DNA of 64,000 bases, taken from assembly GCA_964016885.1 (NCBI GenBank), contig OZ024740.1:269576001-269640000 (forward strand), given 5' to 3'. Made by a program: the position numbers and the translations under genes. Below, piece after piece: positions 3,114 to 58,537 of this stretch. Within the stretch, counting starts at the first letter, position 1. Every line of letters starts with the position of its first letter. The notes below the pieces were generated by a model, which was given only the letters and a program-made list of their open reading frames with translations, did not search any database and was not told the origin of the DNA. This stretch comes from Eledone cirrhosa (Eukaryota).

Positions 3114-3781
3114 TAAGTAAATATCTTTAAGTCGTTTGGAAGCCTCGACAATGCAAATGGGTAAATCTCCGGGTAACAAGGTCCGGTGGTGGAGAGAGAG
3201 ATGTAAGTGGGTGTACGTTGAGATGCGTGGTGTGTATAAGATGTGTGAGATGTGTAGAATGAAGGGAAGAGTATAAAGGATAAAAATAAAAATAACAACA
3301 CAAGAGAGAGTTACCTTGGGAGAGATTTAATAGTCCCTATATATTTCGGATTCACATCCATCAACTGGGGGTTTTTTCCGGGGTGGGGGAAAAGGTTGTC
3401 TGTCGGACAAGTCCGGAACGCGTCTTTCGCTGTTTGTTGTTTTGAATATTAAAAACAACAAACAGCGAAAGACGCGTTCCGGACTTGTCCGACAGACAAC
3501 CTTTTCCCCCACCCCGGAAAAAACCTCCAGTTGATGGATGTGAATCCGAAATATATAGGGACTATTAAATCTCTCCCAAGGTAACTCTCTCTTGTGTTGT
3601 TATTTTTATTTTTATCCTTTATATTCTTCCCTTCATTCTACACATCTCACACATCTTATACACACCACGCATCTCAACGTACACCCACTTACATCTCTCT
3701 CTCCACCACCGGACCTTGTTACCCGGAGATTTACCCATTTGCATTGTCGAGGCTTCCAAACGACTTAAAGATATTTACTTA
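3114..3781. repeat. Near-perfect 668-bp palindrome, probably a PLE-derived fold-back, with a hammerhead-like motif in each arm
   Basis: Arms are reverse complements around aatatt (3445-3450) with about 3 mismatches; mirrored ORFs at 3050-3301(-) and 3594-3782(+). Confidence 0.9.
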
Positions 3782-5207
3782 ATATAAATATATGTTTCTG
3801 TTCTTTGATATTGACTCATAAACACCCACAAATTTAAAATGACTAAAGCAATACATGTATGTGGTAGGAACATATTTAATTTCCACGTTTTATTACAACA
3901 AATATGTTAGATTCTATCTGGAAAATGGAAAGATAAAACTAACGATAGCTACTGATCATTAAATATCCATGTCTTAAGTAACGCCGAATATAGATCATTA
4001 TATGAGAGTTGAAAAGAATAAGGTCATTCATATTCGTATAATGTTATTAGTTTCAACTTTCCTTTAACCTCAAAAATGGATTATTTATCGTTTGTTCTTA
4101 AAAGAAATAATCAGCAGAAACATATCCTATGAAATAGTGACAGCTTGAAATTACGATTCTGTAAGAAAACCTATACATCATGAAGCATATTACGTAGATT
4201 TGCTTTGAAAATTACAGGCGAAATTTCCATAAGGTGTTTCTTAAAGAATTTTGAATTTGTATTTATTGCAGTCGACATTAACTCGACAAAAAAAACAATA
4301 TTTATTATTATTACCACTAAAATTTTCTTCAGCGCAACATACTTAAATATTACTATAATATATTTTCCTCGTGTTTATTCATAGCAGAATCTTTATGATG
4401 TGTGGTTTCCATATAAACTACACCATCTTTTAAATGTATTTTTTTACTTTGATGTAAAAGAAAATGTGTAGCAATCAGTATTTTAAGACTTTTCGTTAAC
4501 TTCTTTTTGTCAATATATTTAGACCACTGGGAAAACTATATCATATGATTAGTTGAATATAAATTAGAATTAGCTATGAAGTGTCAGCTAATAATCACAC
4601 ATTGCTTTCAAACATATTTCTATAATATTGCTTAAATATCGAATATTCATTGGTAAATTGTACAAGCTGTAAATAATATCCGAGACTTATTCTTCTTAAC
4701 GAGACATTTAGAAACAATGATGCCCTGAAATATATTTTACCAAAACTGACCGAGAGAAACGTATAGTAGCCTGATCGATTTTGTGTTGTAGTGTAATAGA
4801 TATTTATTCTAAACATTTAGATCATCATCATCATTTCACACCCATTCTGTTAGTTGCAAATTCAGATGAAAACATCTGTCCGAATAGGAACATTAATTTT
4901 ATGCATAATTAAACTCAGCTGTTAGTGAAATTGGCAGCCAATGAAAAAAACATTCCAGAAACATTTCAGTGAGAACTTCATAGAACAGCAGTAAGCCATC
5001 AGCTGTCTCTTTCTATGACATTTCACTTATTAGTTGATCTATTTCACTTACACCTCAATGAAAGATAACTGAACTCCAAAATCATATGGATTATATTTTA
5101 CGAAGAAAACATGGTTCGTGTTTCTTTTTCAAACTTTAGATGACATGAACAATGTAAAGAATGTATTTGGTTATTATTAGGGATTTTAAATATATTTGGA
5201 TTAATTA

Positions 5208-5352
5208 TTATAGAGTTACGCCCCTTTATGGTCTGAGTTCAAATCCCGCCGAGGTTAACTCTGCCTTTCATCCTTACGGGGTCGATAAAATAAAGTACCA
5301 GTAATACACTGGGATAATTGCTGGCCTTGTGCCAAAAGTAGAAACAATTATT
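5208..5352 (+). mobile_element. SINE family A, 5'-truncated
   Basis: B box gagttcaaatccc and body gccgaggttaac...ggggtcgataaaataaagtaccag. Confidence 0.85.
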
Positions 5353-6548
5353 ATAGAATATAACAAAATATAAGTCGGGGTAGCTGTTGTAAACCCTGGG
5401 GTAGACTTCATTAAACAGGCTAGCGTTCCAACTGTGACCATCAATTATTTCATTCAGACATAATGTATCTTTGTTTACATCATCCAGTGTGTTCTTTTAT
5501 TCACAAGAAATGATGTTTTAAGAAACATTTGGCTGTTATTTCTAGTGGAGCGAGTGACCAATGAAATAATCCATCATTGGCTCTAGGTAGATATAAGTGG
5601 TTTAAGTTAGTTATGATATCAACAATACGTTGAATCAAATAGAATTCTTCTAAGATTAAATTATTCGTGACCGAACTCTCAATAGTATACACATCGAAAA
5701 CTACAGTAGCATACTCAACTTATTATGCATTGTACGTTTTGTTACTTTATAGAATGTTTTGTACATTTATATCACAATTCATTAGTTTTCTAGAGTGGTG
5801 GCTATGTTGTCGGCAGGTGTACAAGACTGGGTATGATGCACTCTAAAGAAATAAGTGCATTGGTTGTTATTTGAGACATATGATGTCAATATATCTATAG
5901 ATCTCATTCTGCGGCGGTCGGCCATCGAAACTTATTCTTGTCAAAACATTGGTTTCTTTAACCATACAGTTATGCGAAAACATTTAGAATCCCAAAAGTG
6001 TGTAACTTCAAAGCAAACGCCTTCATATTTTCCAAAAGCACTCAACATAATTAGAACAGTATTGAAGAACGAAGAGAAAATTTAATGGAAACGTCTCTTT
6101 GAGAGATTTGCCCTGCTTATATAGTTGATGAAAATGGATTATCGATCTTATATATTAATCTAGTTATCATAAATCAATATGTCTAATACATCCATTATTT
6201 CTTTTCTATATTTTAAATAAGATTATTTTAATCAATTGCAATAAATTGCTAACAATGGTGAGGTCTGAAACAATCATGAAATTTCCAGTTGCAACTACTA
6301 TACTTATGTCCTTAAAGTACATGTGTATAACAACGTTATAATAACGTTTCCCTTACCAATAATTTGTGCCGAAAAGAATAAGGTTACAACTGATTTTACT
6401 AAATAAAACGATTTCGATATTCTCTATATTTGTTTTGAAATCTAGAGATAAGAGCCTCTCGAACCATGATTTATCTCGGTTTATTTTCCAATAGATTGTT
6501 TTGAGCCTTGAGAAGAAAATGAATCTCATAATTCAATGTGCTATTCAT

Positions 6549-6732
6549 TTGGCAGTATCGGTAGAGGGTCGGTCGCCATGCTTTCCAGCATAGAGTTACG
6601 CCCCTTTATGGTCTGTGTTCAAATCCCGCCGAGGTTAACTCCGCCTTTCATCCTTGCGGGGTCGATAAAATAAAGTACCAGAAATGCACTAGGATAATTG
6701 CTGGTCTTGTGCCAAAAGTAGAAACAATTATT
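6549..6732 (+). mobile_element. SINE family A
   Basis: tRNA-like head ttggcagtatcggtagagggtcgg, B box gttcaaatccc, same body and tail as other copies. Confidence 0.85.
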
Positions 6733-57009: not shown

Positions 57010-57249
57010 TTAGCAGAAAAAGCTTGGACGCTCAGGGATAGCAATCAAAAGTTTACCCTAAAATGGGAAAAATTAGCTAAAACCCAGAGCTTTTCCAGGA
57101 GCCAAAATTTCTGCAAATTGTGTAATCTTGAGATTTATTACATAATCACACACAAGAAGAAACTGCTGAATAACAGAATTGAACGAACATTATTCTGCCG
57201 TCACAGAACTAAAACCCTTTTTTCCCACTACAAGCAGAATATTACATAA
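57010..57249 (+). pseudogene. C-terminal ~79 aa of a PLE GIY-YIG endonuclease (mirrored on the minus strand)
   Basis: LAEKAWTLRDSNQKFTLKWEKLAKTQSFSRSQNFCKLCNLEIYYIITHKKKLLNNRIERTLFCRHRTK aligns with LAEII...LTW...CRLCSQE...LLNKRQE*IISCNH at ~14200-14400; absent from the ORF track because it has no start codon. Confidence 0.85.
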
Positions 57250-58211
57250 AAGAGGGACATCCCCCAACTATATAAACCTTAATCTAGTTAGAAAAATATA
57301 AAAACAATCTCTTCTCAGCATATATTAATAACCTTAAATTACCATACTAATAATGAAAAGATATGCTGATGAGAATAGGTACAAATATGCGATAATGAAT
57401 GTGTCTAAAAACGTCCATAAGTATGTATATATATGTGAAAATGTATATAAATAAGTAAATATATATATATGTTTGATGTGTATAGTTAGATGTAAGTGTA
57501 TTCATGTATTAAAGTGCTTATATATGTATATATATGTGTGTGTGTATATGTATGTGTGTGTATATATGTATATGTATATATATATATATATATATATGTA
57601 TATGTGTATATATATATGTATGTATGTATATATATATATATATATATGTGTATGTATGTATGTGTATATGGATGTGTATGTATGTGTATGTGTGTACACA
57701 TGGACTAGAGTATGTATGTATATATGTGTGTGTCTATACGTGTGTATATATAAAGATAAGTTGAGTATGAAAATGTATACACATGAGCGCGTATGTATGT
57801 ACATGAATACATGTGTGTATATATATGTGTATGCATGTGTATATATATGTAAGTATGAATATGTGAATTGTGAGTATATGTATTTTGTAGAGGTGTGCAA
57901 ATATATTTGTGTGTGAATGCGTGGGTGAAAGAATACGTACACTTGAAAGAAAAATTTAAGTCTGAATGTTAAGTGCAAACACAAAACCAACCACGCATAT
58001 CTTTACTATCTCTAATCCTTCTATAGATTTAGAAAAATAACCAATAATATATTCTATAAAAAATGTCAAAACAACAGATGGGAATCTAATTACTCACTGC
58101 CACCAAGAATTCTCACTGCTATCGAAAAACCACTCCTTCAACTATTCTTCTAACAACTTCACCCCTCCCTCCTAATATTCTCTATAAAAACTAAATAGGT
58201 CCTCAGTAATA

Positions 58212-58328
58212 TTATTCTGATGAAATGACAGTAAATAATAACATTGAAATATTGAATGTCTGCATAACTAAAAGTTTGTAGATAGCTGTTTTAGGTTATG
58301 TAACTGTTATAGAAACACGTGTCAATAA
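58212..58328 (+). ncRNA. Type I hammerhead ribozyme motif with long stem II (mirror 55688-55804 minus)
   Basis: ttatt-CTGATGA(58217)-a-atgacagt...actgttat-a-GAAAC ACGT GTC-aataa. Confidence 0.8.
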
Positions 58329-58537
58329 ATTCCTTTCAACTAAACTGTATCCATTCAAATCTTTCTATTTTTCTCCGGATTACTTTTGGAACTACAACTG
58401 GAACCGTCGAGCAAACTCTACGTGAGCTGATAATCTACTGTGTGTAATATTTATATTACAACACAACGGAAAATACTGTATATATATATATATATATATT
58501 TCTACATATATGTTGTATATATATATATATGCCTGTC

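Follow-up and report, generated by a model that had tools for sequence, protein, structure and literature searches.

The window, by which we mean the whole 64,000-nt stretch of Eledone cirrhosa DNA analysed here, contains 24 insertions that, including their internal microsatellites, make up 17,128 bases or approximately 27% of its length (Table 1). Penelope-like elements (PLEs) are the closest relatives of telomerase. The initial annotation had described the region as a colony of many (TA)n-targeted PLE families that usually leave a short inverted insertion behind; this was borne out, and the clade could be refined to Hydra where protein sequence survives and likely the same clade elsewhere. 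Between TA tracts, 36 islands of 80–1600 nt were delimited, of which 19 had a local inverted partner (21 when both outer pieces of 55651–58478, dropped by the filter, are counted), so that calling the islands mostly inverted pairs was an overstatement. Likewise, only 13 of the 36 carried a hammerhead at a score of ≥20 and 8 an intact core, rather than most of them. Fifteen representative stretches were mutually without BLASTN similarity, and 12 of these had a hammerhead-like motif, in agreement with an earlier estimate of at least eight families.

Table 1. Features of the window, with positions counted from its first nucleotide.
Feature	Position	Strand	Hammerhead core	Description
P, 334-nt fold-back	3066–3790			AT-rich DNA without TA tracts
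Family F stub, older subfamily	8255–8430			duplicated box in tail
H1, PLE insertion assigned to Hydra clade	10683–15600			(TA)n at both ends; tailed minus arm 10683–12338 (tail 10683–10818), long flush plus arm 12329–15600
H1 hammerhead, inverted copy	10866–11002	-	10994-, intact	
H1 RT-EN frame	12329–14381	+		5'-truncated, broken; stop 13493–13495, frame change before 13641
H1 hammerhead	15412–15549	+	15421+, intact	101-nt stem II, palindromic stem III, predicted cut after 15540
Family F stub	16707–16850			3' half of hammerhead only
Family B, older copy	17030–17320		also starts CCG	right tail with box
Q, inverted insertion	17456–17880			flush left, 59-nt tail right
Family B, inverted pair	18136–18634		18314-, CCGAGGA; 18503+, starts CCG, no GAAA	left tail with box
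Family C, fold-back	18954–19172		19085- and 19103+, intact	U.U at stem II base; left tail with box
Family D, inverted pair	19397–20077		19915+, intact; 19493-, CTGGTGA	right tail, one-mismatch box
Single island	27337–27754	-	27582-, degenerate, ATA instead of GUH	84-nt stem II
Family O	28271–30984		28637+, CAGAAGA	arms 28430–28694 and 30720–30984 around nested insertions
Family F stub	29103–29238		none left	folded at stem III palindrome; tail left, flush right
Family M, second copy	29280–29555	+	29466+, TTGACGA	flush end on (TA)n
Family F, longest copy	29575–30679		29756- and 30566+, CTGAGAA	tailed minus arm, flush plus arm; tail box 29619–29645, minus strand
R, inverted insertion	30993–31380			tail left, flush right
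Third, decayed Hydra-type remnant	33824–34251	+		RT thumb/linker
Family G, inverted pair	41236–43189		41335- and 42999+, intact	flush left, right tail with box
Family K, single island	44015–44351	+	44198+, intact	8-bp stem III
Family F stub	50634–50738			flush arm joined to tail-only arm, arms non-overlapping
Family F stub	50758–50960			truncated in stem II; tail left, flush right
Single island	50986–51098	+	51020+, degenerate, GCA	
Family M	52555–52849		52686-, intact, minimal	U.U at stem II base; fits flush-plus-tail rule imperfectly
Family C, older copy	54218–54404		degenerate	right tail with box
H2, fold-back	55651–58478		58217+ and 55799-, intact	perfect, 1360 nt; 88-nt stem II; flush left arm, right tail to 58478

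Hammerhead motifs

Hammerhead motifs were present far above chance, and self-cutting is predicted for them. A strict descriptor detected 9 cores vs. a mean of 0.18 (maximum 2) in 100 dinucleotide shuffles. A relaxed scorer (score ≥20, 40 shuffles) detected 11 intact-core motifs vs. 0.03 (maximum 1) and 6 one-mismatch motifs vs. 0.15 (maximum 1), and zero motifs in the reversed window. The comparison with shuffled controls, named in the initial annotation as a possible refutation, came out in its favour. The Rfam search (RF00163) suggested there as a check detected no hammerhead here: Rfam models gave 0 matches on the window at gathering threshold, and at E ≤ 10 there was no hammerhead among the matches listed (150 of 274), the E-value list being microsatellite noise. 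The 88–101 nt stem II and the altered cores escape Rfam. Stem II of H1 and H2 contrasts with the 10–33 nt found in related loci with a pattern limit of 40 nt; a scorer allowing up to 130 nt found no longer intact stem II in these loci.

The 11 intact motifs, with complete CUGANGA and GAAA core, stems I–III and NUH cut site (type I), are spread over 7 unrelated families, and altered cores occur in 5 further families; families F, B and O and the sites 27582 and 51020 lack the type I core. Ten of the 18 positions named previously are intact, five have one core change and three are more degraded, while the intact hammerhead 44198+, which is the best monomer candidate, and the variant 28637+ had been overlooked. 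The motifs at 29460 and 52650, listed as a pair, belong to two insertions 23 kb apart. Stem III, described as palindromic, is strictly so in 4 of 12 families, with a loop palindrome in 2 more. In minimum-energy folds of most single motifs stem I was kept, but not all three stems. Such partial folding is usual for these motifs. Read-through RNA of inverted pairs is predicted to fold arm on arm (69–82% paired); a single transcript has only one hammerhead in sense, since the two members of a pair are encoded on opposite strands.

Family F, with a CUGAGAA core, is very abundant and the most abundant of the families. A 414-nt stretch of it was matched by 23,724 of 12.5 million reads in run X7 and by 14,397 of 16.3 million contigs of X1; the small-share public sequencing runs X4 and X6 were also compared. 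Its longest copy in the window yielded no ORF, and in 5 of its 6 window insertions the 5' core is absent, leaving half the ribozyme. Fold points vary between copies. In public reads both termini were joined to TA tracts and opposite-strand joints were seen. Tailed and flush ends occurred at approximately 1:2 rather than 1:1, with 2122 vs. 3534 + 1449 reads and 93 vs. 95 + 109 contigs among the matches listed (24 of 436). The term ribozyme-bearing hairpin insertion is misleading, given the opposite-strand hammerheads and the absence of the 5' core half from most copies of this family.

The minimal hammerheads that Cervera and de la Peña (2014; PMC4209133) described from metazoan PLEs resemble those in the window: many heterogeneous families share one genome, mostly as truncated copies, pairs are 100–700 bp apart on opposite strands, and stem III is palindromic or absent. 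Unlike in that study, stem III is often 4–8 bp here and stem II reaches 101 nt.

Coding remnants and clade assignment

In H1, RT (12329–13492) and then EN (13641–14378) align in order to single relatives of 696–806 aa. The frame contains DKT (12344), in place of the DKG motif, a CxCx5C linker zinc finger (14013), YIG and CxxC..E..N. A CCHH motif was absent from the EN core, with one Cys only between the two beta motifs. The CxxC and CxH flanking the catalytic E and N are both in frame in H2, whereas the H1 frame has CxxC, E and N and stops before CxH. Most relatives have an N-terminal RW(K/R); the H1 ORF is 5'-truncated. The best RT relatives were 50–39% identical; Argonauta hians, an octopod, is the source of the two named ones. 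Neither an RT nor an EN family was recognised by Pfam in the window frames, and 1 of 5 relatives had a weak GIY-YIG match; a word-index search of the EN piece against longer proteins gave no match, and no relative was found in viral contigs. Of the two GIY-YIG ORFs reported initially, 12329–14381 is indeed RT plus EN; the second, 57007–57237 in H2, corresponds to the last EN residues and does not contain the GIY-YIG motif. In H1 a SINE (about 11002–11182) with target duplication lies immediately upstream of core 10994-, and a 234-nt tandem is found in this insertion only, with one complete hammerhead per arm.

The motifs of 12329–14381 are those of the Hydra clade of EN+ PLEs, for which (TA)n targeting and hammerheads are described, with Hydra-1_Obim of Octopus bimaculoides and Penelope-13_HM as members (Craig et al., 2021; PMC8557442); colinearity with Hydra-1_Obim was judged by eye. 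As far as the available sections of that study describe the clade, the window shares with it the C-terminal EN, DKT, the CxCx5C linker, the lack of CCHH, (TA)n targets, a type I hammerhead at the 3' end, several families with U.U at the stem II base, and an inverted copy, truncated at its 5' end, in which both strands bear hammerheads. A canonical type I hammerhead near the 3' end was found in H1, H2 and five other window families, and in 38 of 79 related loci. Cores with CUGAGAA, CCG or CAG, and tails of 45–160 nt vs. the 30–40 nt stated there, set window families apart from those described there. The Naiad clade (Naiad/Chlamys; N-terminal EN, no canonical hammerhead) was dropped because the EN is C-terminal and hammerheads are present, and Neptune, Nematis and Poseidon were ruled out by the EN without CCHH motif. 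For the ten of 12 hammerhead families that lack an ORF in the window, we infer the clade. Insertions of families B, C, D, F, G, K, M and O contained no ORF remnant; families B, C, F and G share the tail box of Hydra-clade relatives.

Flush arms, tails and the conserved box

Of 20 inverted insertions, 16 combine an arm that is flush with (TA)n and an arm extended by a tail of 45–160 nt. In 13 of the 20, one end lies ≤13 nt from the TA tract and the other 52–159 nt past the shared end, and 3 further ones fit by homology to a sister tail; the layout also occurs at related locus L043. In H1 the ORF-bearing arm is flush, the short inverted arm is tailed and the unique middle is oriented as the flush arm; C/G skew gives the same assignment for 41236–43189 and 29575–30679. 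Families M and O and the palindromes 31747–31918, centred on a TA tract, and 58551–58727 do not fit the rule. The hammerhead-like motif of family O points inward; when this family is read with outward 3' ends, a tail results but the strand concerned shows no hammerhead. The arm asymmetry favours two separate primings over a fold-back, with 50634–50738 as the key case: the H1 arm layout, the same layout shown by C/G skew, and the non-overlapping arms of this stub could not come from fold-back copying of one cDNA.

Hydra-clade relatives have two copies of a box, RCTC-N8-18-GAGYRCT, in the 5' UTR, where it forms a near-palindromic inverted repeat 15–30 nt before the ATG. Of 39 relatives, 27 had the strict GAGYRCT within the 120 nt that precede the ORF start (shuffle mean 0.68, maximum 4; random windows 7%), and CTC lay 8–18 nt upstream in 31 of 33 post-hammerhead box instances vs. 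21.7% in shuffles. Among mapped ends from 9 families, 14 of 15 stop 2–13 nt before a box, 6 of these before box 2. This mapping was restricted to copies with a box in the partner within −40 to +60 nt, and several of its loci share families; the L061 end lies 34 nt before its box. In window families F, G, C and B the box lies 2–6 nt past the flush end, and the outer G-C pair of its stem is replaced by A-U or G.U; this covariation comprises one base pair, the inner three being invariant. Only 6 of the 12 window families matched a loose box motif. H1 has a degenerate box only, about 70 nt into the tail, and the pattern was not matched in H2, Q, R, M, O or P, so the two ORF-linked families H1 and H2 match the rule poorly. 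The published consensus of Hydra-1_Obim, as available, showed no box by eye at its 5' end. Neither of the box-free insertions Q and R contained a hammerhead, nor did P by either descriptor.

Origin of the inverted insertions

We consider it probable that the islands are 3' ends of PLEs placed head-to-head in (TA)n, with a hammerhead near each end, both target strands having been nicked and two short cDNAs primed from two RNA start sites. The element's enzyme would nick both strands of the self-complementary TA repeat, and UA in the element RNA could pair with the nicked TA end. Start 1, about 20–60 nt 3' of the hammerhead cut site, would yield the flush arm and start 2, 45–160 nt beyond it, the tailed arm. 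Each start likely lies just 5' of a box (RCUC-N8-18-GAGYRCU), predicted to form a small stem-loop that the protein would bind. Both cDNAs would stop early and be joined at a short self-complementary sequence. The hammerhead would be copied because it is near start 1, and its cleavage is likely unnecessary for insertion; the ribozyme looks like a passenger, 18–60 nt inside the copying-start end. The colony is known in kind, consisting of 5'-truncated insertion ends rather than a ribozyme hairpin element.

Inverted copies and tails are already published for PLEs generally. The inverted pseudo-LTRs of Penelope (Arkhipova et al., 2013; PMC3846280) likewise have head-to-head arms, junction palindromes and a one-arm tail, and that study favours self-priming on an antisense template, antisense RNA having been suggested for a rotifer Penelope, whereas the arm asymmetry in the window favours two primings. 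If the template (antisense RNA or first cDNA) folded back at a palindrome and was copied, endonuclease trimming of one arm could leave the tail, and palindromic or small stem-loop junctions do occur in 29103–29238, 18954–19172, 50758–50960, 3114–3781 and 55651–58478. We consider this unlikely, as the arms of 50634–50738 share no sequence, the H1 tail is on the short arm with the unique middle in flush-arm orientation, and palindromic junctions are equally expected from annealing of two cDNA ends. It is also improbable that the boxes act as DNA, as an internal promoter or an endonuclease recognition site in tandem copies, with DNA cutting rather than RT start setting the ends. This reading keeps some weight since the stem shows no variation in its inner three pairs, the box forms a near-palindromic repeat shortly before the ATG, and the D. 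virilis endonuclease required tail DNA for recognition (cited in the available part of Frangieh et al., 2024; PMC11167929). A spacer of 8 to 18 nt is awkward for a duplex-DNA site, however, and in the only PLE tested, tail ends equal RT starts on RNA, according to the same text.

The small hairpins could instead be self-propagating, ribozyme-dependent mini-elements folding back as a unit, similar to retrozymes, given that family F is very abundant and its longest window copy lacks an ORF. Animal non-LTR retrozymes (PMC7229834; bioRxiv 10.64898/2026.07.22.740005) are likewise non-coding and PLE-derived with a type I hammerhead, but consist of tandem units arranged head to tail, every one with its own hammerhead, whereas the window insertions are head-to-head and variably truncated. 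No head-to-tail units each with a complete hammerhead, the defining trait of retrozymes, were found in the window, where the H1 repeat is the only tandem. With varying fold points, half-ribozymes in most family F insertions and paired hammerheads on opposite strands, we regard this as very improbable. Assembly or library artefacts around TA tracts are scarcely credible: 55648–58368 is 100% and 3114–3781 99% complementary, and palindrome 31747–31918 has a TA tract at its centre, but most pairs differ by 1–19%, one H1 arm has a SINE with target duplication, tails are confined to one arm, and independent runs recovered both termini along with opposite-strand joints.

Returning to two primings, the closest parallel is PAc, a Poseidon element of Anolis carolinensis, for which the available part of Frangieh et al. 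(2024) describes cutting and extension of both strands, two adjacent RT starts that delimit the tail, a predicted dimer, and hammerhead mutants that still insert in vitro. PAc differs in its clade, in starts inside the ORF in an AC-rich stem-loop and in an ATT rather than (TA)n target, and that text reports no conserved box, unlike what we find in Hydra-clade relatives. More tentatively, and at somewhat less than even odds, the duplicated RNA box may position a dimeric RT-endonuclease at two starts, one per nicked (TA)n strand, whereby the octopod non-coding CUGAGAA family would have become very abundant, mostly as half-ribozymes. If so, the two-box rule alone would account for the head-to-head layout as well as for the presence and length of a tail on one side, and this family would be natural evidence that mobility depends on the box and not on hammerhead cleavage.

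The flush/tail arm rule, the box rule and an abundant CUGAGAA-core family mostly with half-ribozymes were not found in the published literature; the two-box rule does not appear in the available sections of Craig et al. (2021), which list as open questions how PLEs make inverted and tailed insertions and why they have hammerheads. The colony itself adds little to these questions. The box offers a concrete, mutable signal with a predicted copying start 2–13 nt before each copy, testable in the in vitro PLE insertion system that now exists. The word ‘ribozyme’ is absent from the available part of a 2026 Octopus vulgaris repeat annotation, and stubs may represent a large, poorly labelled share of octopod genomes.

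Hammerheads and Hydra-clade remnants

A type I hammerhead descriptor was run on the window (33% GC, dense in (TA)n tracts) and on shuffles of its non-TA sequence made in 400-nt blocks with dinucleotides preserved. The strict descriptor found 9 cores vs. 0.18 in shuffles (maximum 2; 100 shuffles), and a relaxed scorer at scores of at least 20 found 11 intact-core and 6 one-mismatch motifs vs. 0.03 and 0.15, respectively, in 40 shuffles; the motifs were thus not as frequent in shuffled controls. As a positive control, the relaxed scorer detected motifs in 38 of 79 related Penelope-like element (PLE) loci outside the window, many of these loci stopping before the 3′ UTR. 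The Rfam search suggested in the initial annotation returned no hammerheads in the window at the gathering score. Fifteen representative stretches lacked mutual similarity in BLASTN and 12 of them had a hammerhead-like motif (intact core in 7), in agreement with the at least eight unrelated families proposed earlier. The islands between TA tracts had been called mostly inverted, which was about right (19–21 of 36), and most had been said to contain a hammerhead, which overstated the case (13 of 36, 8 of 36 intact). Ten of the 18 hammerhead sites listed were intact, 5 had one core change and 3 were more broken; another, 44198+, had been overlooked. The hammerhead colony is real and of a kind already known, and its members of the Hydra clade are new. 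Hammerheads in PLE ends and opposite-strand pairs in truncated copies have already been published (PMC4209133, available text).

The frame at 12329–14381, within insertion H1 (10683–15600), comprises RT followed by EN, is 5′-truncated and is broken by one stop and one frame change. It carries DKT, CxCx5C and CxxC..E..N without a CCHH pair; this motif set matches the Hydra-clade features in the available sections of PMC8557442, and the frame was therefore assigned to that clade. The same sections describe (TA)n insertion and canonical hammerheads for nearly all Hydra-clade families, and a family from Octopus bimaculoides; the two named relatives of our RT frame are from Argonauta hians, and on both grounds an octopod is the probable host. 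Of two GIY-YIG PLE ORFs claimed initially, this one held, the other has kept only the end of EN, and the remaining window families had no ORF in their insertions here. The U.U at the base of stem II in families C (18954–19172) and M (52555–52849) is likewise present in the Hydra-clade table of PMC8557442 (available part), as is an element one of whose copies is truncated and inverted, with hammerheads on both strands, like the window pairs.

The H1 3′ UTR contains two 234-nt tandem units, ~80% alike (14974–15435; inverted arm 11181–11644), both of which run into the first (5′) half of a hammerhead core at their end; the remainder follows the last unit only. A 190-nt SINE-like repeat occurs at 11002–11182 and ~15 other window sites; one copy, with a target duplication, abuts the hammerhead core at 10994 on its upstream side. 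Families B (18136–18634) and D (19397–20077) are unrelated around their hammerheads, yet have a common upstream segment beside an internal microsatellite (18382–18467, 19571–19632, 19800–19856), either a chimera or a common 3′ UTR piece.

Flush arms, tailed arms and the box

The window pairs are head-to-head, with 3′ ends facing outward. In 13 of 20 inverted stretches, one end lies ≤13 nt from a TA tract (flush) and the other 52–159 nt past the shared end (tailed); family O (28271–30984) is among them, but its hammerhead-like motif faces inward. Three more insertions (8255–8430, 54218–54404, 50634–50738) fit this layout through homology to a sister tail, P (3066–3790) has a tail and no TA tracts, and among the 20 stretches the layout was absent from M, 31747–31918 and 58551–58727. 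It recurred in a related locus of another animal (L043). Flush ends terminate on the element's own TA or TATA, and arm junctions often fall at palindromes or small stem-loops. In H1 the ORF-bearing arm is flush and the short arm tailed; base skew suggests a tailed short arm in 41236–43189 and 29575–30679 as well. The family O motif has core CAGAAGA (CAAAAGA in the other arm), U.U at the base of stem II and, past loop 1, a helix that closes the fold, and faces a TA tract containing three nested insertions. In two loci of other animals (L001 2379–2560, L012 2263–2435), a second, unrelated hammerhead stub lies across the TA tract at the element end.

The one testable new lead is the box, RCTC-N8-18-GAGYRCT, in the 5′ UTR of Hydra-clade relatives. 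The pattern T[ACT]GAGY[RT]Y occurred in tails of 6 of 12 window families vs. 0.40 in shuffles (maximum 3), and of 39 related loci (42 listed minus 3 with <60 nt upstream), 27 had strict GAGYRCT in the 120 nt preceding the ORF vs. 0.68 in shuffles. In related loci the box is usually duplicated, with copies ~60 nt apart, in the order hammerhead, 35–54 nt, box 1, box 2, 15–30 nt, ATG. CTC stood 8–18 nt upstream in 31 of 33 distinct post-hammerhead instances (21.7% in shuffles), 29 of the 31 having the form GCTC...GAGC; window families F, G (41236–43189) and C have ACTC...GAGT, and family B allows G.U. The predicted box stem has four pairs with covariation in one, and the box might instead act as DNA.

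When terminal and internal copies were compared, with the set restricted to copies whose partner carries a box between −40 and +60 nt, 14 of 15 ends (9 families; counts overlap, as L004 and L022 look like a single insertion) stopped 2–13 nt before a box, vs. about 1/5 expected by chance over that span by our arithmetic. Eight stopped before box 1 and six before box 2; the exception (L061) ended 34 nt short. In families F, G, C and B the box begins 2–6 nt past the flush end (~19 nt in an old C copy). Counting against the box, none was found at that position in the ORF-linked H1 and H2 (fold-back 55651–58478) or in families Q, R, M, O and P. A Hydra-type locus (L002 2518–2620) terminates at (ATTT)n rather than (TA)n, and here too the end precedes box 1, by 2 nt. 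The duplicated box and its tie to both insertion ends were not found in the literature searched, which covered few subscription papers.

Origin of the paired arms

Taken with the hammerhead and clade motifs and with the conservation and position of the box, the end geometry is likely explained by nicking of the (TA)n repeat, which is its own complement, on both strands and by pairing of UA in the element RNA with each nicked end. Copying would begin immediately 5′ of each of the two boxes, the cDNAs would stop early, and their two ends would be joined at microhomology. The hammerhead would be copied along, its predicted cut site being 18–60 nt inside the flush end. Fold-back of one cDNA was weighed against these two separate primings. 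A folded-back cDNA would be unable to gain the missing tail or to yield non-overlapping arms, and 50634–50738 consists of a flush arm and an arm made of tail alone, which do not overlap; two primings are therefore favoured. The arm geometry also agrees with in vitro work, which exists for one PLE: its enzyme cleaves both target strands and extends them, uses two start sites that delimit a tail, and is a predicted dimer (PMC11167929, available text). Head-to-head PLE arms with a one-sided tail were likewise already published (PMC3846280, available text). Twin priming argued from arm asymmetry was not found for PLEs in the searched literature, with few subscription papers included. The term itself originates with LINE-1.

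In predicted folds, read-through RNA of paired insertions is 69–82% paired, arm on arm. Because the pair hammerheads also lie on opposite strands, inverted insertions probably do not work as ribozyme dimers where they stand. Cleavage of host transcripts would be conceivable for single or long-armed copies, for example the candidate ribozyme at 44198+.

Family F, altered cores and host surroundings

Family F (29575–30679 and five stubs) has six window insertions, five with the 3′ hammerhead half only. Four public runs were aligned to 29577–29990. Matches came from 23,724 of the 12.5 million RAD-seq reads in X7 and from 14,397 of the 16.3 million contigs in X1, and runs annotated as two other organisms matched too. 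Read depth falls ~30-fold between 29702 and 29717, within stem II, a drop to which truncated copies and diverged subfamilies each contribute, in shares inseparable in these data. The reads have TA tracts attached at both termini (tailed:flush near 1:2) and opposite-strand joints from 29612–29674 to 29705–29712, with one to 29747. Since core positions 29749–29756 have no alternative letter among the matches listed (40 of 72), CUGAGAA looks like the family norm. Core variants are named here by hammerhead position numbering (C3, U4, N7, G8). Active hammerheads have a C3-G8 pair or the natural covariant U3-A8 (PMC4209133 and one further source, available text), so the C3.A8 core of family F is likely inactive, unless N7 is taken to be absent from it. 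In family B, position 4 is C in each of the three cores; a viroid hammerhead with the U4C change is known to remain functional. Neither a CUGAGAA-core family nor a Hydra-clade stem II near 100 nt was found in the searched papers, few of them from subscription journals.

Coding remnants and repeats in the window
Feature	Coordinates	Strand	Remarks
7TM rhodopsin-family receptor	20298–21767	minus	intact intronless frame
Second ORF piece	57007–57237		end of EN only
Third ORF remnant	33824–34251
Mariner-like transposase remnant	60829–61732	minus	flanked by 107-nt inverted repeats
LINE-like coding remnant, decayed	44949–46700		translation judged by eye
LINE-like coding remnant, decayed	27769–28121		translation judged by eye; ends in short repeats beside TA tract
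Minisatellite	1327–1992		period ~53 nt
Minisatellite	24415–24729		period ~72 nt
Minisatellite	51607–51809		period ~37 nt

The receptor may have further exons upstream, at higher coordinates, as suggested by a probable splice acceptor close to 21883, and minus-strand hammerheads might then fall inside a receptor intron. The 3′ end of the receptor frame (20299–20447) has a 149-nt copy, 91% identical, at 8445–8593, next to a family F stub; both copies adjoin a TA tract just beyond the stop codon. It could derive from host mRNA, reverse-transcribed from a (TA)n priming site and 5′-truncated, or be what is left of a duplication.
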